Shown here piece after piece: positions 2,722-32,000 of a stretch of DNA of 32,000 bases. A program made the position numbers and the translations under genes. The stretch's first letter is position 1. Each line of letters starts with the position of its first letter. Source of the DNA: Ignicoccus pacificus DSM 13166. Its GTDB lineage: Archaea; Thermoproteota; Thermoprotei_A; Sulfolobales; Ignicoccaceae. Location of the stretch: positions 660,001 to 692,000 of the forward strand of contig CP006868.1 in the NCBI GenBank assembly GCA_025340205.1, in the 5' to 3' direction. A model generated the notes under the pieces. That model was given only the letters and a program-made list of their open reading frames with translations, made no database searches and was not told where the DNA came from.

Positions 2722-2724
2722 CCC

Positions 2725-3294: not shown

Positions 3295-3300
3295 CGTTCA

Positions 3301-3468: not shown

Positions 3469-3482
3469 TCTTTCCTCACCGC

Positions 3483-4136: not shown

Positions 4137-4379
4137 AATGCTCTCTAACTTCGTGAGGATAATCACAATAGAGAGCTAGGTGAAAGTGATCACAGCTTTA
4201 ACACACAATCAAATCGAGTAAGACATCCTGAAGACCAAGTACTCATTTCCAACGAAGAATAAAGAGTTGATCCAAAATGAGAATGCTTCTCCATTTCATG
4301 CGATATTTTTTCGCACTTATACCTTACTCTAACTAGAAAATTTATTAATCGAGAATATTCTAATGCTATTGGTGAGAAT

Positions 4380-4670: not shown

Positions 4671-4678
4671 GTAGAGAC

Positions 4679-4697
4679 TTTATTTTCGCATGTTTTT
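4679..4697 (+). terminator. oligo-T termination signals
   Basis: CTTTATTTTCGCATGTTTTTGG lies directly after the stop at 4670, with T4 at 4683-4686 and T5 at 4693-4697. Archaeal RNA polymerase terminates at oligo-T tracts. Confidence 0.4.
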
Positions 4698-4869
4698 GGT
4701 ATAGTAATATAGTAAGCTAATAATGATCTAAACGATCTATTTACTAATAATGCATACCAGAGAAGGCCACATGATTCAAGCTGAGAGGGAAAAGTGAAAG
4801 TAACTAAATCGCTATCCTAAATCACCTAGACTTTTAGGTAATTATGTGTAGCTTCGCAAGGGTCTCCCT

Positions 4870-5415
4870 TTGTCCCTCCTCGAAGAGCTCCAAAGGAAAG
4901 CTAATGAAGAAAGCAAGTACCCAAACGATCAAGAGTTCTTGGAAAGGAAGGCAATTGATGTAGTTTACGAAATGCTCAAGGCAAAGGAACTGCTCGAAAA
5001 GGGAGATACGAGAAACGCTGCTGGCAAGGCATTCCAAGCTTGGAAGGATCTGCTTTCATGCTTGGTCTACTTGAACTTGGATAAGCTAGCTAAAGATGAG
5101 AAGGAGAAAGAGTGGTACCTCAAAAAGGGAATAATAGTTCCAACCACCAAAATGCAGCCCTTGGCGTTGAAACTAGAGGAGCTAGGCTTCAAGGGGATCT
5201 CTTCTTGGAGTGATAAAGCTCTACTTCTCCACAACTACCAGTACAACGGACCGGATCCAGACAACTACTACGGAGGGATCGTAAGCGAAGAGGTCGCTAA
5301 GGAGTACGTGAAGCTCTTGCTAAAGGCTACTAAGGAGTACTTGGAGAAGTACGTTCTTCCTCATATCAAAGGGAAGAGCTTGGAGATGATAAGGGAAGGG
5401 ATGAGATTAGTTTGA
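4870..5415 (+). CDS. PaREP1-like (HEPN-like helical) family protein
   Basis: 181 aa with a TTG start. ...AKELLEKGDTRNAAGKAFQAWKDLL... followed by ...SSWSDKALLLHNYQYNG... fits the E-L-x-x-GD-x-x-A-x-EK-x-W...W...LH...Y/F-x-G layout I recall for archaeal PaREP1 proteins. Confidence 0.5.
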   Translation: MSLLEELQRKANEESKYPNDQEFLERKAIDVVYEMLKAKELLEKGDTRNAAGKAFQAWKDLLSCLVYLNLDKLAKDEKEKEWYLKKGIIVPTTKMQPLALKLEELGFKGISSWSDKALLLHNYQYNGPDPDNYYGGIVSEEVAKEYVKLLLKATKEYLEKYVLPHIKGKSLEMIREGMRLV

Positions 5416-5426
5416 AGTTGTGAAAG

Positions 5427-5504
5427 TGGCGCCGCGGCCGGGATTTGAACCCGGGTCACGGGCTCGACAGGCCCGCATACTAGGCCTGGCTATACTACCG
5501 CGGC
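5427..5504 (-). tRNA. tRNA-Asp (anticodon GUC), CCA encoded
   Basis: Folded by hand. Acceptor GCCGCGG/CCGCGGC, D stem GUAU/GUAU, anticodon stem CGGGC/GCCCG with loop CU-GUC-GA, T arm CCGGG-UUCAAAU-CCCGG, discriminator G, then genomic CCA. No intron. Confidence 0.95.
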
Positions 5505-5532
5505 ACTTCCGTGCAGGGGAAGAGTGACTATC

Positions 5533-5539
5533 TTTATAA
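5533..5539. promoter_or_regulatory. palindromic TATA element shared by divergent tRNA-Asp and the B3/4-domain gene
   Basis: The element is CTTTATAAG, whose reverse complement is CTTATAAAG. It is centred about 30 nt from the tRNA 5' end (5504) and about 30 nt from the ATG at 5570. This is the only TATA-like element in the 65-nt spacer. Confidence 0.45.
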
Positions 5540-5569
5540 GCTTTTCCCTTCAAGCGCTTTTGAACTTGA

Positions 5570-6265
5570 ATGGATCGCCTCCTAGAGGGCAAAGGCTTGG
5601 TAAGGATCACACTCGATGATTATGCCAGAGAACTCGGAGCCTTCTTGGCCTATGACGAAGCACTAAACGTAAAAGTGTTAGAAAATGATAGCGATGTAGA
5701 GAGACTTCTTAGAGAAGCAGAAGAGGAGGTCAGAAGAGAGCTAACCATAGAAAACTTGAAGAGTAATAGCATCATAAGGGCTTACAGAGATTTCATGTGG
5801 AAGATAGGAATCGATCCCACTAAGATTAGGCCGGCCTCAGAGGCTCTGATAAGAAGGGCGCTAAGAGGAAACTTGCCTAATATAAACTCCTTGGTAGACT
5901 TAGGAAATGCTATAAGCATAAAGTATATGGTCCCCATTGGCATATATGATTTAAACAAAATAGTCTCAGACTTAAAGCTCAGAAGGGCTAGGGAAGGAGA
6001 GAAGTTCGAGCCCATAGGTAGAGGAGAAGTTATCCTTAAGGGGAATGAACTGGTTTTAGCTGATGATGTAGGTATTCTCCATTTATTCCCTTATAGAGAC
6101 TCAAGGAGAACTATGATCACTTTGGATACAAGGAATGCCTTGGTTGTAGCTGCCGGAGTTCCTGGAGTAGATATCGATAGGGTAAAGGGAGCGGTTCACG
6201 AGATATTAAAGTTCTTAGAGGGAAAGGGTGCCAAGGTGAGCCACGATGTGTACCTCGCCAAGTGA
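5570..6265 (+). CDS. B3/B4 tRNA-binding-domain protein (PheRS beta B3_4-like, COG3382-type)
   Basis: 231 aa. ...IRAYRDFMWKIGIDPTKIRPASEALIRRALRGNLPNINSLVDLGNAISIKYMVPIGIYDL...HLFPYRDSRRT matches the B3_4 domain pattern (R-P-S-x-E-x-L-x-R...N-x-x-V-D-x-x-N). Confidence 0.65.
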   Translation: MDRLLEGKGLVRITLDDYARELGAFLAYDEALNVKVLENDSDVERLLREAEEEVRRELTIENLKSNSIIRAYRDFMWKIGIDPTKIRPASEALIRRALRGNLPNINSLVDLGNAISIKYMVPIGIYDLNKIVSDLKLRRAREGEKFEPIGRGEVILKGNELVLADDVGILHLFPYRDSRRTMITLDTRNALVVAAGVPGVDIDRVKGAVHEILKFLEGKGAKVSHDVYLAK

Positions 6266-7049
6266 GTGCAGGAAGGCAGCGCTGAGAGCAGCGGAAAAAG
6301 GAATTGAATACTTGAGGAAAAGCTTCCTTAAAGAGGAACTTACCAATGTAGTGGAGGATCACAAGACCGACGTAAGCAGAAAGGTCGATTTGGAAGTCGA
6401 GGACATAATAATAAGAACGCTAAGAGAAGAGGGCTTCAAGGGAAGCATAGTCACCGAGGAGAAAGGCGTAGTAGGGGATGGGGAGGACCACGCGATAATA
6501 GACCCCCTTGACGGAAGCTTGGATTTTAGTGTAGGAATGCCCTACTTCATAGTAAGCGTCGCCATAGCCAAAGGGGAGACCCTAAGGGATGTAGTGGCCG
6601 GCGCCCTCTGTCCCTCCTTCGGCCATCCTTGCTACTCCTTCGATGACAGAGGAGTGTACGAAGGCGACTTGCCCTTGAAAAGGGGCAAGAGAGAAAAAGT
6701 GATGATCTTCTATGGCGATCCGGAGAGTAAACAATTAGAGTTCCTTAAGCGCAGTCATGAACTGTTGGGCAGACCTAAGATAAGAACTCCAGGAGCCATA
6801 GCTTTCGATCTGTTACACTTGGTAAGAGGTAAGGTTTTAGCAGTTATAGACATAAGGAATAAGTTAAGGAACGTCGATATAGCAAGTGCCATACCCATGT
6901 ACCTAAGGGTAGGTGGAAACGTCAACGAAGACGTACTCGACACGAAAGTAGACTCCGTAAGGGTTGCGGGAGACATAATAGCTCTGGACGATGAAGAGAA
7001 ATTCAAGGAGTTAATACAGGCCCGCGCCGCCCTCCTCGGTAGGCGGTGA
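6246..7049 (+). CDS. inositol monophosphatase / fructose-1,6-bisphosphatase family protein
   Basis: 267 aa with the metal-binding motifs TEEKG, IIDPLDGSLDF and a late VDIASA (WD-x-AA-like). It overlaps the upstream gene by 20 nt and the downstream gene by GTGA. Confidence 0.75.
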   Translation: MCTSPSECRKAALRAAEKGIEYLRKSFLKEELTNVVEDHKTDVSRKVDLEVEDIIIRTLREEGFKGSIVTEEKGVVGDGEDHAIIDPLDGSLDFSVGMPYFIVSVAIAKGETLRDVVAGALCPSFGHPCYSFDDRGVYEGDLPLKRGKREKVMIFYGDPESKQLEFLKRSHELLGRPKIRTPGAIAFDLLHLVRGKVLAVIDIRNKLRNVDIASAIPMYLRVGGNVNEDVLDTKVDSVRVAGDIIALDDEEKFKELIQARAALLGRR

Positions 7050-10000
7050 CATCTGTGAAGAAGTATACCGCCCCAGCGATAATAGCGATTGCACTGATCT
7101 TTGCAATAATAGCGTCGAGAGCAACCATAACTAAGACTTCTTCGATATCGATGATACTGTCACCAAACGCCGAATCCATGAAGGTAAGCTTACTAACAAA
7201 GTCATCCAAGACTACCCTTTCATCAAACGCTGTACTCATAATCGAAACAAAGGAGAAGTACTCCGCATTATCACCAAAGTTCTATAGAGAACTTCATGGC
7301 GCTATCTACAAGTACGGCTTGAACGTCTCTATGGATTACTACACTCTCAGGTCGAAGATCGAGAATAGTATATTGAAAGGAATATTCAACTACACTAAGA
7401 CCTATTACCCCTACATATCCTACTTGAAGAGCTTAGTAAATCAGCTCGATGCTGTATCATTCTACGTGATAGGTGCTCTGGAAAGCGCTTGGAAGCTTAA
7501 GCTCTTCTTAGTTAACCTTCCTAAGTTTTACCATCAGAACTACCAACGGTCCTTGGAATTCGTGAAGGCTGTTAACCATTTTGAAAAGAAATTCTATTAC
7601 ATGGAATTAAACGCTTCCGAAAACTTGGTATATGCGGAGTACAACGTGACCCAGCTGTTATATGAGATAAAAAGGGCCTATGAACTGTTCATTGCTGTTA
7701 ATAAAGCATTCAGCAACTTAACTATGTTATTCAAGAAGGCCCTCTACTTAGAGTGCTCTAATGGAACTCTTTCGATAAGGTTCATCAGTAACTATCTGGA
7801 AGAACATAGCAAAGGCTTAGCCAACTCCATGGCCCCAGTCTTCTCTGGGGCGGTGTTCGACACGGCCCTCGTGTGGCCAGGTAACTTAACCTCTATATGC
7901 AAGAAAAAGGAGCAATTCAACTACTTCGTTATGCAAGTTCTAGCGCGCTTCATCTCGATAGCACCCAATCAGATGCAAGATCTGCTTTCCCACAAGTATC
8001 TGCTACCCAAAGAGACCGTTAGAGCTCTCAGCACCTTAGCCTTGAGTATAGGTCCAAACGCTACAAGAGATATAATAAACTCAGCGCTCTCGGAGGCATT
8101 GAGAGTCATTTTCAATCTTGATACAAAAACTACTACCTTAGCGTTAAAGGCGATAAACGGCGACCGCGAGGCGTTCGCTTCCCTTGTAATACTATTCAGC
8201 GGGATATCAGATCCTTGTTTGACCAAGGTAGCTTACGAGAGCCTAATTACCAACACTTCCTTCACCTTTAACGTCAATGAATGTGAATTACAAAAGCTGA
8301 GGAATCTGGCTGAAAGATACGCTCCCAAGCCATACGACCCTTCCGTGTTAGAAGCGGCTATGGCATATGGGAGCCTCAACGGTCAATGGGCAAAGTATCT
8401 CACTTTCTACACAACTTACATGACTTTACTCTCCAAATCCATTCCTCCACAGATAGCCTACTCTATTGCTTCTACGGGAGAGGTAAAGAACCTCACAAAA
8501 GTACTATATATATACTTGAATAATAGTGGAACTTTGTACGCCAAGGAAATAGCAATAGCTACCGCTACTTCGAAGGACTTTGAACATGCCAGGAGGAAGG
8601 CCTTACTGCTCGTCTTCAGCAAGTTTGCCAAAGAAATGGTGTCGGGAGGCCTCAGCCCTGAAGCGGTCTCTGTGTTGCTTAATTACTTGTTAGCCTGGAG
8701 TCCTGGCTTAACTAACGAGATGATTAACGAAATTGTCTACAAGACTGCGTTGATAGAACTTCAGCAGAAGGCTTCCCAAAATCCCTTCTTACCCCTAATC
8801 AATAAGGTAATAGATCTTAATTCATTTATCAAGAAGGTAGTATGGTGTAACTCACTCAAATGTGCACTAGAGGTATCGAAGGAATATGGCATAATTGCGT
8901 CTAACAATTTCATGGAAAAATACGTTACTCTAGATGTTTTAGTTGGTAAAGACGGTAAACACCTTATAGTAATGTTATCTGGCGACGTCACATATCCTAA
9001 GGTTCTCTCGATATCATCAGAATTGAAGAAGCTGAGAGAGGTCAAGTCCGTTAGCTATACGGGTAGAAGTCTTCTTAACACCGATATACAGAGAAGCGTT
9101 ACCAAGAGCTTGGATGAAATAAACAAGATAGCTACCATATTCGTCTTAATAGCACTCCTCTTCAGCACGAGGAGCTTGAAACTCTCCATAATTCCCGTAA
9201 TAATAATATATATCGTATTACAATACTACAAAGTCTTAGTACTCTTAGTATCAAATTTAATTAAGGTTTATCCATCTAGCATAGATCTCATCGTAGCTAC
9301 TGCAACTATCTTGGGTATGGGAATAGATTACTCCCTGTACGCCGCTCACAAGTACTCGGTTGAAAGATCTATCAAGAAAGCGCTAAGACCTGTCTTGTTA
9401 GCATCTTCGATGGCATCGACGGGATTCATAATATTCGGCCTACTTTCCGTAATTCTACTCCCAAGCTTGGCAACCTTAGGTCTCTTCATCCCTCTTGCGA
9501 TAATGTTCACAGCAACAGTAGGACCTTTGCTCACTTTCACAATAGTAGACTTGATAAAGATTCAAGAGGAAGAAGAGGTAAGGAAGATACCGTTCTTAAC
9601 TGCAGTATCGATAGATTTCCCCAAGCTAACTATATTCACGGTGTTGATTCTGGCTGCTATCTCGCTATACGTCATAAGGGTAGCCCCACCCGGCTATGAC
9701 CTCTTCCTCTTCCTTCCATCGAATGCTCCCTCCGCCCAAGGCCTCAAGGTACTTCAAGACTACTCCAGTCCCGGAATTACCGGACCAACTGTAGTGTTGC
9801 TCAAGCTCAAACAGAACGCCAGCCTAGTTGAGGCGGGCAAGCAAGTTGAGTCGCTCATCCAGTACTTCCTCGAAGGCGGATACTTCGATCACGCCTTCAC
9901 CTTCACAAGGCCTTTGGGTAAATTCATATCGTACAACCCTGAGGTTCTAAAGGTCGTCGGCGGCTTTAACTACATTCAAGGGAATTACATCAAGTTATAC

Positions 10001-10690
10001 TTGCTCCCACATTACCCTCCGGACAGCAATAAGATGATTGAGTACATCAAGTTCATGAGGCAATTCATTCATGAATGGCTCAAGAAGAGGGGGAAGGCGT
10101 TTGACGAAGCCCTAGTAGGCGGCGAGAGCGCTATGAATTACGACCTCTCAACGATAACTAATACGATAATACTCAACTACATACTACCATCAATGATACT
10201 CATAATGGCTGCCGTACTGACCTTGGCATTCCAGAGGCCGGAGTTCGTCGTGTCGGCTCTCTTCGGAACTATTCTCCCAATGATAGTGGCCTTAGGCGCA
10301 GCTGACGTGGTCTTCAAGGTAATCTTTCACTTGCCACTGCTATGGGTAGTGGCGCCGCTACTCGTCACGACCGTGCTAAGCGTCGGTAGCGATTACTTAG
10401 TATTCTACTTGTTCGGAATTAAGGAGAGTTTCGAGGAGTGCAAGTTAGTGATAGATGGCGAGTGCTTGGAAAAGCTTTCCGTACTACTTTACAGCTCAGC
10501 GAAGCTCTCAAAGCTGATAATGGGATTCGCCACCACCTTCGCCGTGGCTTACTTCGCCTTGCTCGTTTCCAACATATGGGCACTGAAGCAGATAGGTTTG
10601 GCATTAGGCCTTTCAGCGCTACTATTGCTCATATCCATAGCATACACCTTAGTACCCGCCGTACTGTCACTAGCGTACAGGAGGCGATGA
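7046..10690 (+). CDS. very large MMPL/RND-superfamily (COG1033-like) membrane protein with an expanded N-terminal ectodomain
   Basis: 1,214 aa. One N-terminal TM is followed by about 650 aa of non-membrane sequence rich in N-x-S/T sequons. Two six-helix bundles then carry the paired signatures GMGIDYSLY and SVGSDYLVFY, separated by a second soluble loop of about 180 aa. Confidence 0.65.
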   Translation: MTSVKKYTAPAIIAIALIFAIIASRATITKTSSISMILSPNAESMKVSLLTKSSKTTLSSNAVLIIETKEKYSALSPKFYRELHGAIYKYGLNVSMDYYTLRSKIENSILKGIFNYTKTYYPYISYLKSLVNQLDAVSFYVIGALESAWKLKLFLVNLPKFYHQNYQRSLEFVKAVNHFEKKFYYMELNASENLVYAEYNVTQLLYEIKRAYELFIAVNKAFSNLTMLFKKALYLECSNGTLSIRFISNYLEEHSKGLANSMAPVFSGAVFDTALVWPGNLTSICKKKEQFNYFVMQVLARFISIAPNQMQDLLSHKYLLPKETVRALSTLALSIGPNATRDIINSALSEALRVIFNLDTKTTTLALKAINGDREAFASLVILFSGISDPCLTKVAYESLITNTSFTFNVNECELQKLRNLAERYAPKPYDPSVLEAAMAYGSLNGQWAKYLTFYTTYMTLLSKSIPPQIAYSIASTGEVKNLTKVLYIYLNNSGTLYAKEIAIATATSKDFEHARRKALLLVFSKFAKEMVSGGLSPEAVSVLLNYLLAWSPGLTNEMINEIVYKTALIELQQKASQNPFLPLINKVIDLNSFIKKVVWCNSLKCALEVSKEYGIIASNNFMEKYVTLDVLVGKDGKHLIVMLSGDVTYPKVLSISSELKKLREVKSVSYTGRSLLNTDIQRSVTKSLDEINKIATIFVLIALLFSTRSLKLSIIPVIIIYIVLQYYKVLVLLVSNLIKVYPSSIDLIVATATILGMGIDYSLYAAHKYSVERSIKKALRPVLLASSMASTGFIIFGLLSVILLPSLATLGLFIPLAIMFTATVGPLLTFTIVDLIKIQEEEEVRKIPFLTAVSIDFPKLTIFTVLILAAISLYVIRVAPPGYDLFLFLPSNAPSAQGLKVLQDYSSPGITGPTVVLLKLKQNASLVEAGKQVESLIQYFLEGGYFDHAFTFTRPLGKFISYNPEVLKVVGGFNYIQGNYIKLYLLPHYPPDSNKMIEYIKFMRQFIHEWLKKRGKAFDEALVGGESAMNYDLSTITNTIILNYILPSMILIMAAVLTLAFQRPEFVVSALFGTILPMIVALGAADVVFKVIFHLPLLWVVAPLLVTTVLSVGSDYLVFYLFGIKESFEECKLVIDGECLEKLSVLLYSSAKLSKLIMGFATTFAVAYFALLVSNIWALKQIGLALGLSALLLLISIAYTLVPAVLSLAYRRR

Positions 10691-10712: not shown

Positions 10713-11870
10713 GTGATGGTATTGGCTACATTTCGAGCCACTCTGAGAGCCCTCTACGTCTACTCCGCCATAATAGCAGTAGCGGGGAGCGTCCTCTATT
10801 CCGTCTTCGCACCTTATGCTAAGTCGGTGGGCATTGGTCCCTTCGAATACGGGATACTAACCGCCATCTTGACGCTTGTCGGCATGCTCTCAGCTCCCAT
10901 TTGGGGCTACCTCTCAGACAAGGTGGACCCGAGACTGCTCTTGGCAATAGCTTCCTTCACTGGCTCTTCCATTTTCCTCTTTCTGTTGATTAAAGCGAAG
11001 TGGGCTTATTACATGGCTGCGATGATGGCCGGAGTAACTGTCGGAAGCTCGGCTGTTTCCCAAGGACTAGTTGGAAAATTAGCTGAAGATAAAGATAAGG
11101 GCTTCGCCTATCTTCAGTTCTCTAACTTAATAGGAGGGGCTTTGGGGGCGCTCCTGGTCCTCACCGGCCTTTTCTCTAATTATAACCAAGCCTTCGCCTT
11201 TGGAGCGATGGTGATGATTTTCTCTTTGGCACCTTTAGCATTCATGAAGAGAGTCTCATTTAAGGTATCGATGCCCAAGCTCTCAGAACTTAAGGCTCTC
11301 CCTAGAGCAGTTTACTATATCTTCGCGTTTCAGCTGATCCTAGCGATAGGCGCAGCCGCTGGGGTTTGGATGATTGATTATTACTTCGTAAAGAAGTATA
11401 ACGTGGGAATGAGGTCAGTGGGCCTCTATGTTTTCCTCAGACAGACGAGCATTGCCTTGATGACTCTCCTTGTTCCGGATTTGAGTAAGAGAGAAGGAAG
11501 GCTTAAGGCCTATTTCTTGTTAGCTATACCGGCTACGGTACTTACGTTCATGGTTACGCTGGTCAACGACTTCTACTTAGCTTTGGCTCTAATAATAGCT
11601 AGGGGGGCTCTGATAAACGCCGGGAATCCGATAATAGATGCCATCTTGGCTGACTTCACTCCAAAGGAAATAATGGGAACGGTCATGGGTATACTTACTA
11701 CTTTGAATGCAATGGGAGCCACCTTAGGTAGGTTAATAGGCGGCTACTTAATGGAGATAGACGTGGAGTTACCCTTGCGATTTACTGCCCTGATGTACGC
11801 CTTAGGCATAGGTGAACTTGGTCTTACCATTGGTAGGAGATCTAAAGCTAGAACCTCCGAAGTAAGATGA
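10713..11870 (+). CDS. MFS-type transporter
   Basis: 385 aa with about 12 TM segments and a motif-A-like WGYLSDKVDPR. It starts 23 nt after the MMPL-like gene. Confidence 0.65.
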   Translation: MMVLATFRATLRALYVYSAIIAVAGSVLYSVFAPYAKSVGIGPFEYGILTAILTLVGMLSAPIWGYLSDKVDPRLLLAIASFTGSSIFLFLLIKAKWAYYMAAMMAGVTVGSSAVSQGLVGKLAEDKDKGFAYLQFSNLIGGALGALLVLTGLFSNYNQAFAFGAMVMIFSLAPLAFMKRVSFKVSMPKLSELKALPRAVYYIFAFQLILAIGAAAGVWMIDYYFVKKYNVGMRSVGLYVFLRQTSIALMTLLVPDLSKREGRLKAYFLLAIPATVLTFMVTLVNDFYLALALIIARGALINAGNPIIDAILADFTPKEIMGTVMGILTTLNAMGATLGRLIGGYLMEIDVELPLRFTALMYALGIGELGLTIGRRSKARTSEVR

Positions 11871-16543: not shown

Positions 16544-16579
16544 GAAGCGTTGAGCACCGCTTCATGGTGGGTGAGCACG

Positions 16580-18259
16580 ATGGCCGCCGGTGTACCCGTT
16601 CTGATACTCAAAGAGGGCGCTAGCAGGACTTACGGAAGGGAGGCCCTAAGGAGCAACATCCTAGCTGCCAGGATAATCGCTGAGGTCTTGAAGACCAGCT
16701 TGGGTCCCAGAGGAATGGACAAGATGATAGTTGACAGTTTCGGTGACATCACTGTCACCAACGACGGTGTTACCATACTCAAGGAGATGGACGTACAGCA
16801 CCCTGCCGCCAAGCTGATCGTAGAGACTGCCAAGGCGCAAGACGCTGAGGTAGGCGATGGTACTACCAGCGTGGTGGTACTAGCCGGAAGCCTCCTGGAG
16901 AAGGCCGAACCCCTCCTAGACCAGAACATCCACCCAAGCATAATCATTGAGGGTTACAAGAAGGCTATGGAGAAGGCCCTAGAGGAGCTAGACAAGATCG
17001 CTGTAAAGATTGACCCCAAGGACAAGGCTTACATGAAGAAGCTCGTCGGAACCAGCCTCAGCAGCAAGTTTGTAGGCCAAGAGGCCGAGGAGATCAAGGA
17101 GAAGCTTCTAGACATGATCATCGAGGCTGCTTACACCGTAGCTGAGGAGCAGCCCGACGGAACTCTCAAGATGAACATGGACGATATAAAGATCGAGAAG
17201 AAGAAGGGAGGAACTCTGCTGGACAGCCAGCTCGTGAAGGGTATAGTCCTAGACAAGGAGGTTGTCCATCCAGGCATGCCCAGAAGGGTGGAGAACGCCA
17301 AGATCTTGCTACTAGACACCCCGCTAGAGGTCGAGAAGCCCGACATAACCGCCAAGATCAACATAACTGACCCCAGGCAGATAGAGGCCTTCCTAGAGGA
17401 GCAGACCAAGATACTCAAGGAGATGGTCGACAAGATCGCCGCCACCGGAGCCAACGTCGTCATAACCCAGAAGGGCATCGACGACGTCGCCGCTCACTTC
17501 CTAGCGAAGAAGGGCATACTGGCCGTAAGGAGGGTGAAGAGGAGCGACATCGAGAAGATAGCCAAGGCCACCGGAGCCAGGATAGTGACTAGCATCAAGG
17601 ACGTCACTCCCGACGCCCTAGGTGAGGCCGAGCTGGTCGAGGAGAGGAGGGTTGGTAAGGACAAGATGGTGTTCATTGAGGGATGCAAGAACCCCAGAGC
17701 CGTGACCATACTGCTAAGGGGTGCCAGCGACATGGCCCTCGACGAGGCCGAGAGGAACGTCACCGATGCTCTGCACGTGCTGAGGAACATATTCATGAAG
17801 CCCATGATAGTGGCCGGAGGAGGAGCCATTGAGGTCGAGCTGGCCGAGAGGCTGAGGAAGTACGCCACCAGCGTGGGAGGCAAGGAGCAGCTAGCCATCG
17901 AGGCCTACGCCGAGGCCCTCGAGGAGATACCGGTGGTGCTGGCCGACACTGCTGGAATGGACACCTTGGAGGCCCTAATGGAGCTGAGGAAGCTACACAG
18001 GGAGGGCAAGATCTGGGCCGGCGTGAACGTGATCGAGGGCAAGATAGAGGAGGACATGACCAAGCTAGGAGTGATCGAGCCGGTAAGGGTTAGGGAGCAA
18101 GTGCTCAAGAGCGCTACTGAGGCAGCTAACGCCCTACTGAAGATCGACGACGTGATCGCCGCCGCTCCGCCCAAGGAGGGCAAGAAGGGCAAGGGCGGCG
18201 AAGGAGGAGAAGAGGAAGAAGAGGGAGGAATGGGCAAGTTCGGTGGCGGTGAGTTCTAA
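16580..18259 (+). CDS. ths: thermosome subunit (group II chaperonin)
   Basis: [22 protein letters not shown]...LGPRGMDKM...TNDGVTIL...VGDGTTS...VAGGGA.E, with a Gly/Glu-rich tail. The ORF track starts at a TTG at 16550, but the conserved N-terminus begins at the ATG at 16580. This is the highest-GC gene in the window, at about 57% in one 60-nt line I counted. Confidence 0.95.
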
Positions 18260-18757: not shown

Positions 18758-19861
18758 ATGAAGGAAAAGGTCATTGCCACGGTCCTAGCGATATTCATGA
18801 TAGTCGATGCAGTCTTAAGTGTCAACGCCGCCCTACACGCGCCCTTCCCCGCTGCCGTGCCGCTGGGAAGTCCTGCCGCTTACTTGAACGTCTACCTCCA
18901 CGTCCCGATAGCTTGGGCAACGTACATGCTCTTCATAATAGGCTTCATACTAGCTATAGCTTACCTAGCAACCGGAAACAAGAAGTTCGATAAATATTCA
19001 GAGCTGTTCATCTACACGGCGTTAGTGTACGCGTTCTTGACACTAATAACTGGGAGCATGTGGGCCATGGAATCGTGGGGAAGCGCTTGGAACTGGGATC
19101 CCAGGGAGACGGCCGTTCTCCTACTCTTTATAGCCTACTTGGTGTACGTGGCCATAAGATACAGCATTAGAGATCCGGAGAGGAGGGCTACGGTCTCTGC
19201 AGTCTTCGCCATAGCCGCATTCGCTACCGTTCCGATAAGCTTCCTAGCCCCTTACTTGATCCACGGGAGCCTTCACCCCACGATGTCCAATACCGAGTCG
19301 TTCTTGTCACACCCATCCACAAAGACATACTTCTTCAGCAAGGTATTTACTACAGTCGTTACCGCTATACTAATACCTATAGCCATTGGAATGAGAGCCG
19401 ACAAGAAGATAGTGACGGCCGGCGCCTTGGGAATGTTCATAATACTGATCATTGGAGCCTTAATGGTCATGCCGTGGGGAGCTACGGGAAGGGTCGAGGC
19501 AGCTTACTTCACTAAGGGTAGCCTAAAGTTCCAGTTCTATACAGCAAACAACAAGATAATGACCCATACTGGAGGATTGATAATAACCGTTAATGGCAAA
19601 AACATAACCTTGACCACGTCGAAGGGCTTACCTAAACCCAACTTCATACCGGTACCAAACTTCGCCAGGGGAACGAACAAGACTGGAATTGTGGTGGAGT
19701 GCTGCGGAAGCAAGTACTGGCCAACCATATTAGGTCATATAGTCAAGGTTAGCAACGGTAAGGTAACCGTCTTGAAGCCCTTTACCGTAGCGTGGACCCT
19801 CCTAACCTATGGCATCTTCGTCCCTCTCTTCGTTGTATTGATGGTGAGGAGAAGGGAGTAA
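18758..19861 (+). CDS. ccmC: CcmC-type haem-handling protein (System I cytochrome c maturation) with a C-terminal CcmE-like extension
   Basis: WWD motif WGSAWNWDPRE at 19076-19108. The flanking loop histidines sit in YLHVPIAW and IHGSLHP, and there are six TM helices as in CcmC. A further TM follows, then about 100 soluble residues containing CCGSKY (19700-19717), then a final TM. Confidence 0.7.
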   Translation: MKEKVIATVLAIFMIVDAVLSVNAALHAPFPAAVPLGSPAAYLNVYLHVPIAWATYMLFIIGFILAIAYLATGNKKFDKYSELFIYTALVYAFLTLITGSMWAMESWGSAWNWDPRETAVLLLFIAYLVYVAIRYSIRDPERRATVSAVFAIAAFATVPISFLAPYLIHGSLHPTMSNTESFLSHPSTKTYFFSKVFTTVVTAILIPIAIGMRADKKIVTAGALGMFIILIIGALMVMPWGATGRVEAAYFTKGSLKFQFYTANNKIMTHTGGLIITVNGKNITLTTSKGLPKPNFIPVPNFARGTNKTGIVVECCGSKYWPTILGHIVKVSNGKVTVLKPFTVAWTLLTYGIFVPLFVVLMVRRRE

Positions 19862-19950: not shown

Positions 19951-20352
19951 ATGGTATGTCCGTTTGCTGTACAAAGAGGGCTACTGTCTAGGAGGGTCTT
20001 CTGCCTTGCCATAGGGATGTACGTTAACTACAAGAAACAAGGATGTTTGACTAACAAGTTCGTTGAATGTCCATACTACAAGCAAGCCATAGAAGAGGAA
20101 AAGAAGAAGGAAGAGGAGAGGATCATAGCACCTGATGCCCACGAAGTCCTAGAGGGAGAAAAAGACATACTAGAGAAAACCGTCAACGAAAGCGTCAAGG
20201 AAGCGCTAAAGAAGTACGCGGATCCAAAGAGAGGGATATACCCAGACACGTGTTACGACTGTCTTTACTTCTCTCCAACCACGGGGTTATGTCTGTATAT
20301 GAGAATAAAGGTAAAAGATCCAAACAATCCCCCTTGCAAGAGCAAGAAATGA
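19951..20352 (+). CDS. Cys-rich small protein, hypothetical
   Basis: 133 aa. There are four Cys in the first 40 aa and four in the last 33 aa (CYDC-x9-C-x14-C), separated by a highly charged linker (EEEKKKEEER). Its stop overlaps the next start as ATGA. Confidence 0.45.
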   Translation: MVCPFAVQRGLLSRRVFCLAIGMYVNYKKQGCLTNKFVECPYYKQAIEEEKKKEEERIIAPDAHEVLEGEKDILEKTVNESVKEALKKYADPKRGIYPDTCYDCLYFSPTTGLCLYMRIKVKDPNNPPCKSKK

Positions 20353-21116
20353 TAGTGGAGGGTTTCTTGCTTCTCTACAAGGACTTCATTTGGATGGCAA
20401 AGGGTATTGAACATCCAGAGGGCTATGCCGTAGCCTTCCCGCGCTATCACGGAGGTAAGAAGGTTTCTCTCTTCCCCACGCAATTTCTATCCCTCGTTAA
20501 GACTTGCGATTGTTCTCCTTCGCCCGTACCCTTAGTTCCTTTAGAGAGAGCCATAGTTTATGATCCGAGAGACTTAATAGAAAGGGACACGCTCGCAAGA
20601 GATTTCGCCTCTGTGTTAGCTAAGGGGGCCGGACTCACGGGATCTAGGGTAATAGGCGTAGAAGGCGACATAGACCTAGTCTTCTATGATAGTTATGAAG
20701 AAGTACTAAAAGCCCTAAAGGATCTTAGAGATGATGGGGAAATAGAACCGGAAATAGGGAAGTGGAAGAGTCTGGGCGAAGGAGCTATCAAATGTAAGCT
20801 CAAGCACACCCTTCTAGAAGGAAAGTGGAGAGGCGTTCACTACTCCATAAGACTCGTCTCGGCTCCTAGAGCTCCTTCAAGGCCCGTTTCCTTGGGTTTG
20901 AAGGCAGTTAAGGGAAGGATCATTGAAGCCAATAACACAGTAATGCCCTATGAATACGTATTGGAAAACGGAGTTATTATAGAGAGCTTGAGGATGCAAC
21001 ACTCCGAGATACCGGTGGGAGCGATAATAGAGGTGAAGGGATCGTGGGAGATGAGCTCGAGAGGAGAGAGACTCCACCTAGGGTTGAACTCATTCATGGA
21101 TGTGATCTCTTGCTAA
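20349..21116 (+). CDS. predicted Pol-beta-superfamily nucleotidyltransferase with a C-terminal beta-rich (OB-like) domain
   Basis: LTGSRVIGVEGDIDLVFY is an hGS-x7-DxD minimal NTase signature. The C-terminal about 70 aa (KGRIIEANNTVMPYEYVLENGVIIESLRM...IEVKGSWE) looks like an OB or barrel fold. I chose the ATG at 20349, which overlaps the upstream stop as ATGA, rather than the track start at 20250. Confidence 0.45.
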   Translation: MIVEGFLLLYKDFIWMAKGIEHPEGYAVAFPRYHGGKKVSLFPTQFLSLVKTCDCSPSPVPLVPLERAIVYDPRDLIERDTLARDFASVLAKGAGLTGSRVIGVEGDIDLVFYDSYEEVLKALKDLRDDGEIEPEIGKWKSLGEGAIKCKLKHTLLEGKWRGVHYSIRLVSAPRAPSRPVSLGLKAVKGRIIEANNTVMPYEYVLENGVIIESLRMQHSEIPVGAIIEVKGSWEMSSRGERLHLGLNSFMDVISC

Positions 21117-21856
21117 TAGCGGAGGCCTTAGAAGGAGCCTATCCCAAGGCAGGGAACGTGAGTCCCTTAAATGAAGGCCCGTTCAAGTACTTAGACCTAC
21201 TGGTTGAAGCGTGGAGACTTAAAAGAGTATGCGAGATGACCTTACCTCTGGGGAAGAGGTACTACACCTTCCTAACTTCACAAAGGGTAACTGCTCTAGC
21301 TGGCTTTGCGATACTCTCCATACCTCTCTTCGATTGCTTGAGTAGGGGTTTGAAGATGGGAAGATGTGGAAGGGATATTGTTAGGGGAAGCTCCCCTGAG
21401 GACGCCTACTGGTACCTCAAGGCGCTAAGGGATTCCGGTCTTTCTCATTTGAGGAGAGTTGAAGGAAGGGATTATCCTAATGTAGAGCGACCAGAAGAGG
21501 TCTTTGAGAAGGGCTGGAATTTAGAATACGTCTTTAAGAGAGTGGCCGATACCATCTCTTTGGAGATCATTAGAGGCTACCCCCTCTCCACGGAGGGGGC
21601 TCATTACCTTCTTGAGAATGGTATAGAAAGAATTAGGGAGCTCCAGCGAATTATCTTATCTAAGAGTATAGATGACCTAGTAGCGAGGAAGTGGGGCCTT
21701 CGAGTAGCTTATGAACTCACCTTAGCGGCTAGAGAAGGGCTTCATGAAAAATTCATTGAGGAGAAGGGGCTGAATCCTGGAACCACTGCTGACATAATCG
21801 GAGTCTCCGTTCTTATAGCCCTCTCCGAGCTTTTGAGAAGGAGGGAACTTTGGTAA
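21044..21856 (+). CDS. CitG/MdcB-like triphosphoribosyl-dephospho-CoA synthase family protein
   Basis: The N-terminal AYPKAGNVSP resembles CitG SPKPGLVD, and the C-terminal LNPGTTADIIGVSVLIAL resembles CitG LSPGGSADLL. Both occur in the expected order and spacing. The start is uncertain: the ATG at 21044 overlaps the upstream gene by 73 nt, and a TTG at 21110 overlaps it by 7 nt. Confidence 0.55.
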   Translation: MGDELERRETPPRVELIHGCDLLLIAEALEGAYPKAGNVSPLNEGPFKYLDLLVEAWRLKRVCEMTLPLGKRYYTFLTSQRVTALAGFAILSIPLFDCLSRGLKMGRCGRDIVRGSSPEDAYWYLKALRDSGLSHLRRVEGRDYPNVERPEEVFEKGWNLEYVFKRVADTISLEIIRGYPLSTEGAHYLLENGIERIRELQRIILSKSIDDLVARKWGLRVAYELTLAAREGLHEKFIEEKGLNPGTTADIIGVSVLIALSELLRRRELW

Positions 21857-26050: not shown

Positions 26051-26863
26051 GTGGGGCAAGTGCTCAAGTTCGGTAGCTGTAGGAGGCTGTTCCACGAGGA
26101 CTGCGACTATTACGTCGTTCTCGAAGAGGAGTACTGTAAGAAGGAGGAAAACGTATTCTGCTTCCCGGTAATCAACTTCTCGATAGAACCCTTCGGGAAC
26201 ATAGTAGCTGCTGTAGCTACAACCTTGGACTTAAGCAATGAGGGAACCGTCTGCGTCTGTGATAAGGGAGGTTGCGGTAGAAGCGGGACCGTAGCAGCGG
26301 GGGCGCTGGCCTACGCACACTCCGAGTTGCCCTTTTCCCAGTTAAAGAAAATGTTAAGGAACGAGTACGGCCTATTGAAGGAGTGCCCGGAGAAGCCAGA
26401 ACAACTAGAGGCGGTCAGAATGATGTGGGCTGCATTTCACTTTTTCGGAGATGACGGCTTTAGGCTGTTAACTAGAACCACCTACGTCTACACATTCGGT
26501 AAGCCCTCGAGAAACGAGGAGGCTGGCGCTTTCGTGGTGAACGTTACCGATCCTAAGTACGCCAAGAAGGCGAAGTTCTTGCCAATAAGGGTCCTTGGGA
26601 AGAGAATACCATATGGAAGGGAGGCGAGGGTTACGATCAACTCCAAGGAGTTAAGGAGGTACATGGGAATTAGAGGCTCTATAATTCTAGACGAACTGGA
26701 GCGCGTTAGAACCGAAGGAAAGGTCGTCAGACTAGAAGAGCTGACGCCGGACGAGGTCTTGGGTTACGCCCTATCCTATTCGATATTGGAAGGGATGGCC
26801 TTCAAGACGTTGAACCCTGAAGAAGGATTGGTCCTCTTAACCAAATCTCTACTCTTCGATTAA
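26051..26863 (+). CDS. hypothetical protein with a PTP/DSP-like P-loop and an unrecognised C-terminal domain
   Basis: 270 aa with a GTG start. VCVCDKGGCGRSGTVAAGALAY (P-loop DNA at 26252-26290) resembles the V-H-C-x-G-G-x-G-R-S-G-T loop of Cys-dependent protein phosphatases, but the register differs (see findings). Confidence 0.35.
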   Translation: MGQVLKFGSCRRLFHEDCDYYVVLEEEYCKKEENVFCFPVINFSIEPFGNIVAAVATTLDLSNEGTVCVCDKGGCGRSGTVAAGALAYAHSELPFSQLKKMLRNEYGLLKECPEKPEQLEAVRMMWAAFHFFGDDGFRLLTRTTYVYTFGKPSRNEEAGAFVVNVTDPKYAKKAKFLPIRVLGKRIPYGREARVTINSKELRRYMGIRGSIILDELERVRTEGKVVRLEELTPDEVLGYALSYSILEGMAFKTLNPEEGLVLLTKSLLFD

Positions 26864-28596: not shown

Positions 28597-28684
28597 TGGC
28601 GCCGGGGGCGGGATTTGAACCCGCGCGGGGTTTCCCCCACCGGCTTAGCAGGCCGGCGCCCTAACCAGGCTAGGCGACCCCGGC
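28597..28684 (-). tRNA. tRNA-Ser (anticodon GCU), CCA encoded
   Basis: Folded by hand. Acceptor GCCGGGG/CCCCGGC, anticodon stem CCGGC/GCCGG with loop CU-GCU-AA, long variable arm UGGGGGAAACCCCGC, T arm GCGGG-UUCAAAU-CCCGC, discriminator G, then genomic CCA. Confidence 0.9.
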
Positions 28685-28714: not shown

Positions 28715-28814
28715 CTTTTCTAATGTTAACGGTCATCTAAGTCGATAAGAATCCATAGAGGTTCGGGAGAACCCTAAATACTCTCACTGTACTCCCAGTA
28801 CTGGTAGCAGCATC

Positions 28815-31800
28815 ATGAAGCTTAGGGTAATGATATTACTAATGACATTGACCTCCTTGGCCTTCGCTATCAACTACAGCAACCTAACAATGTCAGTGGC
28901 GTTGCAGAACTTGGTGCCCTTGCAACCAATTCAATTGAAATCGTCATACGCCGCTATTAAGGCTCTCAAACTAATGAACGTGACATTACCTTCTAACTTG
29001 ACATCTCAGATAGTCCTCGTCACCAAAGAGGCAATAGAACAAGGACTTTACGATCAAGCTGCTTACGGAGTGGCCTCGCTGGCGATGCTAGGTGCTAAGT
29101 GTACTAATCCCACCTTTGTGAAGCTCCTCGATCAAGTAATTCAGAGCAACGACGTATTAGCTAAGCTCGTCGGTTTAGAGGCAATGAGCATAGCCAACTG
29201 TACTGTAAGTGATACGTTATTCAATCAAATAATAAGGGAGGCCGACGCTAAGGCGAGGTCTCTTATAGGAGTTGACAACGACGCGGTCGCTGAAATATAC
29301 TATCATCTACTCCTATTGAGGGTACATGACCCGCAGCTAAGGTCATGGGCTAAGAGAATGGTAATGGCATACGCGGTCCTGTCGACCAACTTCCAGAAGT
29401 CCTTAGCTGAAGTTCACAAACTCGTCCCAGAAGCCGTGTTCACACCAACGGGCTTCGGCTGGCTAGTAGATGCCTTGGCCATCGTAGGAGCTCCAGAGGC
29501 CCAAGTAGGATTAAACCTACTGCTTGACAACCCTCCAGCTAGCGTCCTACCAGCGCTGGTCCAGTTAAGGGTCCTTACAATGTCCAACTTACCTAAAGGA
29601 TACGTACTTCTAACCACCACAGAGTACAAGACGCTTACTTTAATAAAGAGAATCACACTAACTACTACGTCCCTAGAGTACAAGACTATTACATTCAATA
29701 AGACGGAACTCCTTCCCGTGACTAAGAGCTTTACCACTATTATAACAACAACCAAATTCATAGTGTTCCCAGTTGCAATTACTGTACCTTACACGGAAGG
29801 ACTGGCTTACAAGGTGATAAGCCCTAAGAACGCTACCGCCATTTCACTACCATTAGTGACTAGCGTCGTCGTTAAGGAACCAAAGTACAACTTCACTACG
29901 ACCACCTACATCCAGATACCTTTGCCTATAGTCAATAACTTAAAGGAAACTATAGCCACGTTAACTATAACTAACAAAGGAAGGATCTATGTAGTTGTGC
30001 TAGGTGTAGGGAATTTCGTGAAGACGCTCACCAACACGGTCACACTCTTCATCTCGACTACTATATACTCTACCATAACCTCAATAACCACTTCGACGTT
30101 CATTAAGACCATAGTTAACACAGTAACTACTGTAATAACATCACTAATAACAACTACCAGCGTCCTAACCAAAACAGTAACGACCACCGTAACACAGTTG
30201 AAATTCTTATTGGCTACAACCACCACTACGCTGCTTAAGACGGTAACTCAGACGCTGACCGAAACCTTGACCTCGATAGTGACTACTACGTTTAGCACTA
30301 CCTTAACCAGTATCAGTACCATAGTAACAACAACAACTAAGGTCATAACAAGCGTCCTAACTAGCACAATAACGCACATACTCTCATTAGTAAAGACCAC
30401 CACTCAGACGTTAATTAAATCAATAACCTACAGCACAACACTAACTTCATACATAACCAAGTTAAAGACGCTAACGTATTACATAACTAAGACTCTAACG
30501 CTAACTAACAACATAACCACAACAAAGTTAGTCCCAGTAACTAGGATAGTGACAGCTACGTCTACGCTGACTAAGACCTTAACTCTGGTGAACACTACAA
30601 CAGTAACTAACATGGTAAAGGTGATATCAAGTACCACTGTAGTGAAGCCAGTAACCGTAACGTCAGTAAAAACTGTATTAATGACGGTAACTACAACTAC
30701 CCCAACGACGATAACAAGCGTGATCACCAAAACTTACTATTCTACTATAACCCAAACAGTTACCAATAACTTGACCATAACGAGGATAGTCCCAGTTACG
30801 GAAACGCTCACATCCATAGTGACGAGGAACATAACTACCACCTTGACTAAAGTGCTGAAGTTTACCTATACTAGCACGGTTGAGAAGCCCGTCACCGTTT
30901 ACTCGACTGTCAGCGCCTTAGTGACACTGCTCAAGACGATCTATAGTACCATAACCGAAGTAACTCCCGTTGCAGTAACCACTACAGTGACTAACGTACT
31001 TACTAAGGTGTTAACCAGTACCGTAACCACCACGTTTACCTCTATATCTAAGATAGTCAGCACCTTGGTCCTTCCAATTAAGAGCGTAATCACTAAGACA
31101 GTAACCAGCACTGTATTAATGCCCGTCACAAAGACTGTAGTAAGTAAAGAAATCGTCCCAGTAACGACCACAGTAATGGTTCCTAAGACGGTAACTTACA
31201 GTACTACCTACACTAAAGTCGTGATAGAGAATCGCACGAAGATAATTCCTGTAACGACCTCTACAGTATTGTACAAGACTCTGACGACAACTTACGTAAC
31301 CACTTCGACGGTGACTCAGGTTGTGCCATTAGTGGTAAGCACATCTAAGGAGATCACACTCACAAAGGTACTAAGAGTTACCTCCACCGTAACTAAGCTG
31401 ATAAGAGTACCAACGACCGTAACGTTCAAGACCACGATAATAAAGACGGTACAAGAGACGCTCACGAAGACCTTAGTAAGCACAATAACCTCAACCGTAC
31501 TCGTTCCAATGAAGTTAGTTACTACATTGATCAGCACAGTAAAGGTGACGGTATCCAAGGTCGGATTACTACCCATATTCAAGACAATCACAGAAACGAG
31601 CAGCACGACAGTAACTGTTACCACACCTACGACGTTGATGATAACAAGTACCAAGATTCTCTTCAAGACGCTTACCACAACAGTAGAGAAGTTAGTATCT
31701 GCAATTAGTACCGTAACGAAGACTATACTTAACGTCATAAAGCTTGTAGTGACAACGACTAACAACGTCGAAAGAGTAGTCCCAGTGATCAAGACTCAGA

Positions 31801-32000
31801 CTTACACGACGACCCTTACTACCTTCTCCACTATAAACGTAACCAAGACGATTACGTATACCAAACTCCTCACTACAACTCTCATTAGTCCCCTGACTCA
31901 GAGGGTAACCACTACCTTGACGTACACCTCAATAATAGTAGAGCCTATGCTAGTGCCAAAGACTAAGACATTAACCGTTACCAAGGTTCTGGTGAAGACG
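28815..32000 (+). CDS. giant secreted or surface protein, extremely Thr-rich; 3' end beyond the window
   Basis: This ORF is absent from the ORF track because it has no stop in the window. I translated it by hand from the ATG at 28815 to nt 32000, which gives 1,062 codons with no stop. It begins with a signal-peptide-like MKLRVMILLMTLTSLAFA. About 260 aa of ordinary helical-repeat sequence follow, then T/V/I/K/L/S-dominated sequence. TAAATA at 28775-28780 lies 35 nt upstream. Confidence 0.75.
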   Translation, partial: MKLRVMILLMTLTSLAFAINYSNLTMSVALQNLVPLQPIQLKSSYAAIKALKLMNVTLPSNLTSQIVLVTKEAIEQGLYDQAAYGVASLAMLGAKCTNPTFVKLLDQVIQSNDVLAKLVGLEAMSIANCTVSDTLFNQIIREADAKARSLIGVDNDAVAEIYYHLLLLRVHDPQLRSWAKRMVMAYAVLSTNFQKSLAEVHKLVPEAVFTPTGFGWLVDALAIVGAPEAQVGLNLLLDNPPASVLPALVQLRVLTMSNLPKGYVLLTTTEYKTLTLIKRITLTTTSLEYKTITFNKTELLPVTKSFTTIITTTKFIVFPVAITVPYTEGLAYKVISPKNATAISLPLVTSVVVKEPKYNFTTTTYIQIPLPIVNNLKETIATLTITNKGRIYVVVLGVGNFVKTLTNTVTLFISTTIYSTITSITTSTFIKTIVNTVTTVITSLITTTSVLTKTVTTTVTQLKFLLATTTTTLLKTVTQTLTETLTSIVTTTFSTTLTSISTIVTTTTKVITSVLTSTITHILSLVKTTTQTLIKSITYSTTLTSYITKLKTLTYYITKTLTLTNNITTTKLVPVTRIVTATSTLTKTLTLVNTTTVTNMVKVISSTTVVKPVTVTSVKTVLMTVTTTTPTTITSVITKTYYSTITQTVTNNLTITRIVPVTETLTSIVTRNITTTLTKVLKFTYTSTVEKPVTVYSTVSALVTLLKTIYSTITEVTPVAVTTTVTNVLTKVLTSTVTTTFTSISKIVSTLVLPIKSVITKTVTSTVLMPVTKTVVSKEIVPVTTTVMVPKTVTYSTTYTKVVIENRTKIIPVTTSTVLYKTLTTTYVTTSTVTQVVPLVVSTSKEITLTKVLRVTSTVTKLIRVPTTVTFKTTIIKTVQETLTKTLVSTITSTVLVPMKLVTTLISTVKVTVSKVGLLPIFKTITETSSTTVTVTTPTTLMITSTKILFKTLTTTVEKLVSAISTVTKTILNVIKLVVTTTNNVERVVPVIKTQTYTTTLTTFSTINVTKTITYTKLLTTTLISPLTQRVTTTLTYTSIIVEPMLVPKTKTLTVTKVLVKT

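Follow-up and report, generated by a model that had tools for sequence, protein, structure and literature searches.

Threonine-rich regions have been described in several archaeal surface proteins. In haloarchaeal surface-layer (S-layer) glycoproteins, O-glycosylated threonine clusters form spacers before the anchor (PMC5744192). SlaB of Sulfolobus contains a Ser/Thr-rich, highly glycosylated stalk region, and its overall plan comprises a Sec signal, beta-sandwich domains, a Ser/Thr-rich coiled coil and one C-terminal transmembrane helix (PMC6911244). Tetrabrachion of Staphylothermus marinus (Desulfurococcales) exhibits arms that are extremely rich in beta-sheet and a long stalk with a non-heptad hydrophobic period (PMC5744192). 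Here we describe a gene that starts at position 28815 of a 32,000-nucleotide stretch of Ignicoccus pacificus DSM 13166 DNA (contig CP006868.1, positions 660,001 to 692,000; hereafter the window) and that runs past the end of this window. Its product is very probably a secreted surface structural protein, and its most conspicuous part is a long region in which threonine keeps to every second position.

The visible part of the product would comprise, in this order, a Sec signal, a helical head of about 230 residues, a beta-type domain of about 130 residues, and at least 668 residues with threonine, or occasionally proline, at every second position. The corresponding features are the following:

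28815..32000, + strand: the gene, 5' part of 1,062 codons, with its stop past the window edge
28815..28868, + strand: Sec-type signal peptide, residues 1-18 (MKLR, a hydrophobic core and AFA), read from the sequence
28902..29579, + strand: alpha-helical repeat (alpha-solenoid-like) head, residues ~30-255, from AlphaFold2 and conservation
29598..29996, + strand: mixed beta-type transition domain, residues 262-394, from composition and threonine register
29997..30533, + strand: threonine-rich segment A, residues 395-573, threonine on even positions, proline-free
30534..32000, + strand: threonine-rich segment B, residues 574-1062, (aliphatic-Thr-polar-Thr)n with h-P-h-T motifs

A preliminary description, made from the DNA letters alone, had reported a switch to sequence built from T, V, I, K, L and S. 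This switch is indeed found at about residue 262 and becomes stronger at about residue 400. Residues 271-1062 comprise 32% threonine, 15% valine, 10% leucine, 9% isoleucine, 8% lysine and 7% serine; valine, isoleucine and leucine together account for about 34% of the threonine-rich region and proline for 3.5%, and the overall hydropathy is positive. A recount of the richest stretch of 168 residues gave 69 threonines (41%), one fewer than the 70 (42%) counted earlier. Residues 395-1062 contain only 3 glycines and 16 asparagines and are strongly basic, with 61 K/R against 12 E and no D. Such a composition is exceptional: threonine averages 4.3% in the other 28 open reading frames (ORFs) of the window, against 32% at residues 271-1062, and none of them exceeds 15 threonines per 100 residues. 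Among the 1,093 ORFs of the fetched loci (1.15 Mb), only three exceed 30% threonine per 150 residues, namely the present gene, the homologue described below and an unrelated short stalk.

The T-x-T alternation is much stronger than the preliminary description had stated. Within residues 395-1062, threonine occupies 179 of the 321 even positions and 41 of the 321 odd positions (binomial p ~9e-22). Its period is exactly 2, without a phase slip over the 668 residues from residue 395 to the window edge, and the threonine autocorrelation is still +0.2 at lag 38. The threonines of residues 261-380 are in the opposite register, with a single phase switch near residues 385-395. All 20 prolines of residues 395-1062 are also located on even positions, in the threonine register (p ~2e-6); the spacings from proline to proline are all even and range from 4 to 52, typically 16-38, with about one proline per 25 residues in segment B. 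In segment B, the prolines occur within h-P-h-T motifs (VPVT, KPVT, IPVT). Segment A comprises a run of 129 residues without P, G, N or D, and the proline-free stretch to which it belongs extends over 203 residues (372-573). The odd positions are occupied by V, L, K, S, I and some T. On this odd face, aliphatic and polar residues alternate in turn (autocorrelation -0.47 at one dipeptide), which gives an overall pattern of roughly aliphatic-Thr-polar-Thr. Silk-like proteins place one residue type on every other position and keep this register over hundreds of residues, a property that is also observed here.

At the DNA level, the coding sequence is diverse. The four ACN codons are mixed, as had been noted before (57/79/75/60), the third codon positions of the gene are balanced, Tandem Repeats Finder reported nothing on the gene, and the direct DNA repeats are short and weak. 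Based on the four threonine codons, the balanced third positions and the lack of tandem repeats, the threonine-rich region is an old, diversified coding sequence. A recent microsatellite expansion was rejected, given the absence of DNA repeats and the mixing of synonymous sites. The degenerate units of about 85-110 residues that had been proposed are not detectable, since self-similarity stays within the range of parity-preserving shuffles at all lags from 1 to 200. The highest-scoring lag is 11, with a z of 3.0 against 3.5 for the 95th percentile of the shuffle maxima; lag 22 is also top-ranked and equally non-significant. Local self-similarity is modestly higher than in parity shuffles (mean best score 128 versus 111 +/- 3.4), and is due to short motifs like TLTKTLT and VPVT, not to true units.

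Two relatives, both metagenomic, were the only matches when residues 1-420 were compared by phmmer with 1.84 billion cluster representative proteins. The first, P0001, is a 140-residue fragment at the end of a 1.3-kb contig (L030) and is 58% identical over residues 1-139. The second, P0002, is a 101-residue fragment on a 9.3-kb contig (L031), of which nucleotides 2302-6112 carry the coding sequence of a homologue about 1,270 residues long with the same plan as the gene: a signal peptide, a head, a mixed beta domain, and about 880 residues of threonine-rich sequence up to the stop. The head of this homologue is 31-40% identical over residues 28-208, and its threonine-rich part contains 30.7% T, 15.7% V, 12.9% L, 3.6% P, 0.9% G and 0.2% D, at a genomic guanine-plus-cytosine (GC) content of 55% versus 47% in the window. 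Its proline spacings are even save for two phase flips, with in-phase blocks of 100-220 residues. The threonine-rich regions of the two proteins align equally well at several offsets (33-38% identity), and their likeness is one of pattern and not of position. As the homologue, at a different GC content, exhibits near-equal composition, even proline spacing and in-phase blocks without positional similarity, selection seems to keep the pattern rather than the exact sequence. The reading frame of the homologue changes four times: two of the changes coincide with scaffold gaps, seen as runs of N (4043-4083 and 4479-4488), and the other two lie inside the head (~2595 and ~2870), where there is no gap.

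That the family could not be recognised, as stated in the preliminary description, agrees with these searches. Pfam-A and NCBIfam scans of residues 1-1062 returned no family, a profile search of PDB sequences gave no match, and Foldseek returned only generic helical repeats. A word-indexed search of 5.8 billion proteins with the full ORF or the head gave no match, low-complexity words having probably saturated the candidates of the full query. A scan of a genome collection with the head domain and a scan of metagenome contigs with the head-domain alignment gave no match either, and a genome scan with the neighbouring YaaH-like protein yielded only distant loci, mostly of Bacteroidota, that are uninformative for the gene. 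A 32-nucleotide piece of the tRNA-Ser gene that lies upstream is found exactly in 69 metagenome contigs (L032-L100), several of which bear hot-spring-style names such as CisS, which we take to stand for Cistern Spring; none of the 69 carries the gene or its neighbours in the window. Phage records and viral contigs contained no match to the gene, and nothing therefore points to a viral or mobile origin. A literature search on alternating-threonine proteins found nothing relevant. The gene and its two relatives make up a very small orphan family, and two of the three known members are fragmentary or damaged.

The frame itself stands as first described, with an ATG at 28815 and no stop for 1,062 codons up to nucleotide 32000; the preceding in-frame stop ends at 28748. 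Two further features precede it:

28756..28814, + strand: conserved upstream block, from the alignment with L030, GAGAACCCTAAATAC...GGTAGCAGC.TC followed by ATG
28597..28684, - strand: tRNA-Ser (anticodon GCT), from ARAGORN and Rfam

The tRNA-Ser gene is divergent from the gene and located 130 nucleotides upstream of its start. On L030, the same tRNA-Ser(GCT), 100% identical, is found at 666-753, again divergent and about 140 nucleotides upstream. The final 48 nucleotides preceding the ATG are about 85% identical between the window and L030, and the remaining spacer is poorly conserved; identity at the protein level is only 57%. The block contains a TATA-like TAAATA about 40 nucleotides ahead of the ATG, and we infer that it comprises a putative archaeal promoter and a short 5' leader. 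A perfect 10-bp palindrome, CCAGTACTGG, is located at 28790-28799 on the + strand, within the block and just ahead of the ATG; L030 has an imperfect version (TCAGTACCGG). The palindrome may serve as an operator or form a hairpin in the leader.

The remaining two + frames contain 184 and 55 stops over 28815-32000, so that the 1,062 open codons, together with the balanced synonymous codon use, identify the ORF as a genuine gene. The orthologous fragment on L030, which shares the tRNA-Ser neighbour and the conserved promoter block, and the shared architecture of the L031 homologue lead to the same conclusion. A gene on the opposite strand was rejected. Five long, spurious valine-rich ORFs had been reported there, and only two stop-to-stop ORFs of at least 90 residues are present (124 and 159 residues, 18-28% Val); both arise as by-products of the ACN/GTN-rich coding sequence. 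The G content of the coding strand, given earlier as 7-17% per 60 nucleotides, was computed as 7-23%, with a mean of 16%.

The N-terminus exhibits the hydrophobic, signal-like stretch followed by helical sequence that had been described, the helical part extending over about 240 residues. It resembles a signal peptide, MKLRVMILLMTLTSLAFA, followed by INY after the predicted cleavage, and this layout is common to all three family members, P0001 and P0002 included. For the head, AlphaFold2 was run on residues 1-420 with a three-sequence alignment. The model shows 13 helices spanning residues 2-254, with a predicted local distance difference test (pLDDT) score of 70-95 for residues 30-190 and below 50 beyond residue 190. 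The matches of this model to the PDB by Foldseek are generic helical repeats (Integrator IntS4, 14-3-3, HEAT-like), with E values of at least 0.019. On this model, the head appears to be an alpha-solenoid-like domain without a recognisable family. Cys96 and Cys129 are invariant across the three members, and several sequons are shared among them, which would suit an extracellular, disulfide-bonded glycoprotein domain; the head is likely disulfide-bonded and N-glycosylated. A secreted or surface location is supported by the signal peptide in all three members, by the sequons clustered in the head, and by these two invariant cysteines, and the surface location proposed in the preliminary description fits.

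The transition domain contains about 20% threonine, placed on odd positions in the register opposite to that of the remainder, and proline-rich turns; the AlphaFold2 model is not confident in this part. An imperfect direct repeat of 29 nucleotides with a spacing of 54 nucleotides (29621-29703, + strand) represents the one clear duplication inside the gene. At the protein level, it corresponds to an 18-residue duplication, TTTEYKTLTL / TTSLEYKTITF.

With regard to glycosylation, the gene encodes 14 N-x-S/T sequons in total and not the dozens of N-x-T sequons first reported. Five are found within the first 130 residues (N20, N23, N55, N61 and N128) and six within residues 395-1062, which is about the number expected from composition. 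The idea that the protein is heavily glycosylated through N-x-T is not supported, as the threonine-rich part has only these six sequons and the 883-residue threonine-rich part of the homologue only two. O-glycosylation of the threonine-rich region is possible.

For the alternating region, we consider two-faced beta-strands in an elongated beta-sheet rod to be the best explanation, at about even odds. Such long strands would expose the hydroxyl and methyl groups of threonine over one entire face, and aliphatic and lysine side chains on the other. By packing within or between chains, they would form an elongated beta-sheet rod, a very long version of the threonine-rich stalks of crenarchaeal surface proteins, with a role like that of the beta-rich tetrabrachion arms. 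The rod would keep the helical head at a distance from the cell or else assemble into a heat-resistant S-layer or matrix meshwork. Fully extended as one strand, the 668 residues would measure about 220 nm. The beta-rich character proposed in the preliminary description is upheld indirectly, by the beta-branched content (58-59% of the threonine-rich region), by the mean Chou-Fasman values (P(beta) of 1.20-1.22 versus P(alpha) of 0.95-0.97) and by the period-2 signal. In segment B, 58% of the residues are beta-branched, the mean P(beta) is 1.20 versus a P(alpha) of 0.97, and the hydrophobic residues exhibit a period-2 power of 17-23 and no significant signal in the helical band, which would favour beta-strand; the frequent prolines would also interrupt long helices. 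The fold of segment A is ambiguous: it combines the threonine register with a high beta propensity, yet its hydrophobic residues show an additional period of 3.75 with a power of 8.5-9.0, which none of 200 parity-preserving shuffles reached in the 3.4-3.9 band. Such a period lies in the range of non-heptad, right-handed coiled coils like the stalk of tetrabrachion (PMC5744192).

Several observations weigh against the rod. The 3.75 period of residues 395-573 is significant and helix-like, and a single-sequence AlphaFold2 model of residues 381-1062 gave long helices, although with a mean pLDDT of 39.5, which is uninformative. The residues typical of beta-turns (G, D, N) are almost absent, which would make the reversal of strands hard to explain, and the net charge of +49 disfavours in-register parallel stacking. 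The two frame changes inside the head of the L031 homologue may be assembly errors or may indicate a decaying gene. This homologue ends in ...SKALVEIVNGVATTLSIPVLIYG; it lacks both a PGF motif and a basic tail and shows no clear membrane anchor or PGF-CTERM, and its last 21 residues have a mean Kyte-Doolittle value of about 1.5, as calculated by hand.

The helix-like signal of segment A is the basis of a different view, in which the threonine-rich region, or at least the proline-free residues 395-573, is a non-heptad, right-handed alpha-helical coiled-coil stalk whose helix surface is coated with threonine. This is unlikely, but it is the main rival view for residues 395-573: the period of 3.75 equals 15/4, there is no proline across 203 residues, lags 11 and 22 rank top in self-similarity, AlphaFold2 drew long helices, and an 11-residue right-handed coiled coil has been reported for tetrabrachion and a Ser/Thr-rich one for SlaB. 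However, threonine is a poor helix former, and the region is 59% beta-branched, with a P(alpha) of 0.95 versus a P(beta) of 1.22. A strict period-2 placement of threonine would be meaningless on a helix, yet it continues through residues 395-573. Moreover, lags 11 and 22 do not reach significance, the helical model has the low pLDDT given above, the visible part has no Pfam Tetrabrachion match, and from residue 574 onwards one proline per about 25 residues and the dominant period of 2 exclude a continuous coiled coil. Somewhat less probable still is an unfolded region, that is, an extended, densely O-glycosylated, mucin-like spacer that sets the distance between head and cell. The 32% threonine, the low complexity, the fast evolution with non-positional similarity to the homologue and the low AlphaFold2 confidence agree with it, and both the O-glycosylated threonine-cluster spacers of haloarchaeal S-layer glycoproteins and the Ser/Thr linkers of Sulfolobus provide precedents. 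Nevertheless, about 34% V/I/L and a positive hydropathy are unlike soluble mucin-type spacers, and serine (7%) and proline (3.5%) are modest. The register of 668 residues, the second face of aliphatic and polar residues and the prolines of a single parity, all conserved in the homologue, would be superfluous for a spacer. A mucin-type composition, dominated by Thr/Ser/Pro with few hydrophobic residues and no register, was rejected for this region.

The preliminary description had also drawn an analogy to beta-solenoids, and a regular solenoid with a flat T-x-T ladder, of the kind known from insect antifreeze or ice-nucleation proteins, could bind a crystalline or mineral surface. T-x-T motifs are abundant, one face would consist entirely of threonine, and threonine ladders are a known surface-binding device, but this analogy was not supported and we consider such a fold very improbable. 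No coil-length periodicity is found at lags 1-200, the proline spacings are irregular (4-52), turn formers are nearly absent (Gly, Asp and Asn), and there are neither Gly/Asn corner residues nor a Cys ladder. Ice binding would make no sense in a thermophilic host, and the searches returned no structural or sequence matches. That the ORF is not a functional gene at all, and represents either a chance open frame due to strand composition or a decaying pseudogene, is hardly credible. Its low complexity, its very few relatives and the frame changes of the L031 homologue could be cited in favour. They are countered by the 1,062 open codons versus 184 and 55 stops in the other + frames, by a confidently folded head that is conserved at 57% and 31-36% identity, by the signal peptide, by the conserved promoter block, and by the coincidence of two of the L031 frame changes with runs of N.

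A bolder extension of the beta-sheet rod is a "threonine silk", an undescribed protein material in which two-faced strands would zip together through their all-threonine faces and so form a fibre, a sheath or an S-layer strut resistant to heat. One possible form of its fold is an intertwined multi-chain beta-helix, another a stacked sheet; such a fold would be absent from structure databases and restricted to a small lineage of hyperthermophilic archaea. We regard this idea as unlikely.

The surface proteins of uncultured archaeal hyperthermophiles are poorly known, and they govern attachment, cell shape and encounters with viruses. The occurrence of the same threonine rule in a distant relative with a different GC content points to a structural constraint rather than to drift. 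An ordered beta-sheet rod would make the tail a naturally occurring fibrous material of great heat stability, encoded by a minimal sequence rule, and would interest both students of the archaeal envelope and designers of protein materials. Were the tail only a glycosylated spacer, it would be an extreme yet ordinary case of a known theme.

The remainder of the window contains archaeal genes, including those for a thermosome subunit, a DUF763 protein, Trm5/TYW2-type methyltransferases and a CDP-alcohol phosphatidyltransferase. The thermosome is 91-92% identical to proteins from metagenome assemblies in ENA, and about 70-72% identical to those of Desulfurococcales metagenome-assembled genomes, Aeropyrum, Stetteria, Pyrodictium and Hyperthermus; the contigs of its closest relatives are not syntenic around the locus of the gene. 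The two tRNAs of the window have a GC content of 69-75%, against 47% for the window, and glutamine accounts for only 1.5% of residues. Both the tRNA composition and the low glutamine fit a thermophilic or hyperthermophilic host. On these grounds, the host is placed in Thermoprotei, close to Desulfurococcales. The listed thermosome ORF (16550-18259, + strand) has 569 residues and a TTG start, and is about 15 residues longer than its relatives (546-558 residues). Family models match it from residue 15-16, and the true start is probably downstream of the listed TTG.

Other ORFs of the window merit mention. A CcsA/CcmC-like cytochrome c assembly protein (18758-19861, + strand; Pfam PF01578, E 6e-29) hints that the host makes c-type cytochromes, which are patchy among Thermoprotei. 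A membrane protein of 1,214 residues (7046-10690, + strand) exhibits a weak MMPL/RND (HAE3-like) similarity only in residues 669-921 and is followed by an MFS transporter (10713-11870). The ORFs at 20250-21116 and 26051-26863 (both + strand; 288 and 270 residues) have no Pfam or NCBIfam match, and the former overlaps the 3' end of the ORF at 19951-20352 and the start of the CitG-like ORF at 21044-21856.

Outside the archaeal envelope, the alternating region can be compared with several fibrous or aggregating proteins. The crystalline blocks of the silk fibroin heavy chain are (Gly-X)n sequences with a strict dipeptide periodicity. By analogy, the gene exhibits a dipeptide periodicity in one register over hundreds of residues, which would give two distinct sheet faces able to stack into a tough material. 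In contrast to silk, the invariant residue is threonine and not glycine, there are no exact DNA repeats, the host is an archaeon and not an arthropod, there is no homology, and the beta-sheet is predicted only. The T-x-T motifs and the potential all-threonine face recall the beta-solenoids of antifreeze and ice-nucleation proteins, from which the gene differs in having no regular coil repeat, no corner residues and a thermophilic host. Fungal Als adhesins contain Ile/Val/Thr-rich, amyloid-forming segments, and MspA of Methanothrix (Methanosaeta) is an archaeal sheath amyloid. These proteins share with the gene an extreme beta-branched content in a surface protein, predicted to drive beta-aggregation. 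However, they are short cores or small subunits, as opposed to a continuous region of about 670 residues, there is no homology, and the high lysine content of the gene product argues against in-register amyloid stacking.

Among characterised large surface proteins, tetrabrachion is the nearest, and no sequence link to it was found. Both are very large secreted precursors from the same order-level neighbourhood, and the gene combines a beta-prone region with a segment of period 3.75, tetrabrachion being compared by description only. The domain order appears different, with the helical head first in the gene. With respect to the tetrabrachion stalk, the 3.75 period is confined to residues 395-573, lags 11 and 22 are top-ranked and non-significant, and the C-terminus lies beyond the window. 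The Pfam library includes a tetrabrachion coiled-coil model. No tetrabrachion family was matched in the Pfam-A and NCBIfam scans of residues 1-1062, the visible part only, and the stalk region would lie beyond the window. Of the SlaB plan, the gene product has a signal peptide and a threonine-rich region. It differs in its first domain, which is all-alpha, in the far greater length of its threonine-rich part, and in the absence of a transmembrane helix from the visible part. No match to SlaB was obtained in the Pfam-A or NCBIfam scans, in which the presence of a SlaB-specific model was not checked.

The general plan, in which a secreted surface protein of an archaeon carries a folded distal domain and then a threonine-dominated region, is that of the crenarchaeal and haloarchaeal threonine-rich stalks. 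An unrelated archaeal surface protein of this kind was observed on one of the tRNA-Ser contigs (L073, 6785-8128, - strand; 448 residues stop-to-stop). It has a folded N-terminal part and a stalk of 130 residues with 35% threonine alongside Ile/Leu and a threonine period-2 power of 7.6, which directly precedes a C-terminal transmembrane anchor ending in KKYRK. A similar protein, with a Thr/Ser/Pro linker and a C-terminal anchor, is encoded at 50-1267 of contig L100. The region of the gene exceeds the L073 stalk at least fivefold in length (668 residues or more versus about 130). It differs from known threonine-rich stalks by an unbroken register and by a second face on which aliphatic residues alternate with Lys/Ser; it also has no sequence homology to any named family and no anchor in the visible 5' part. 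Threonine-rich stalks are an established theme of archaeal surface proteins, and the gene product looks like an extreme form of it.

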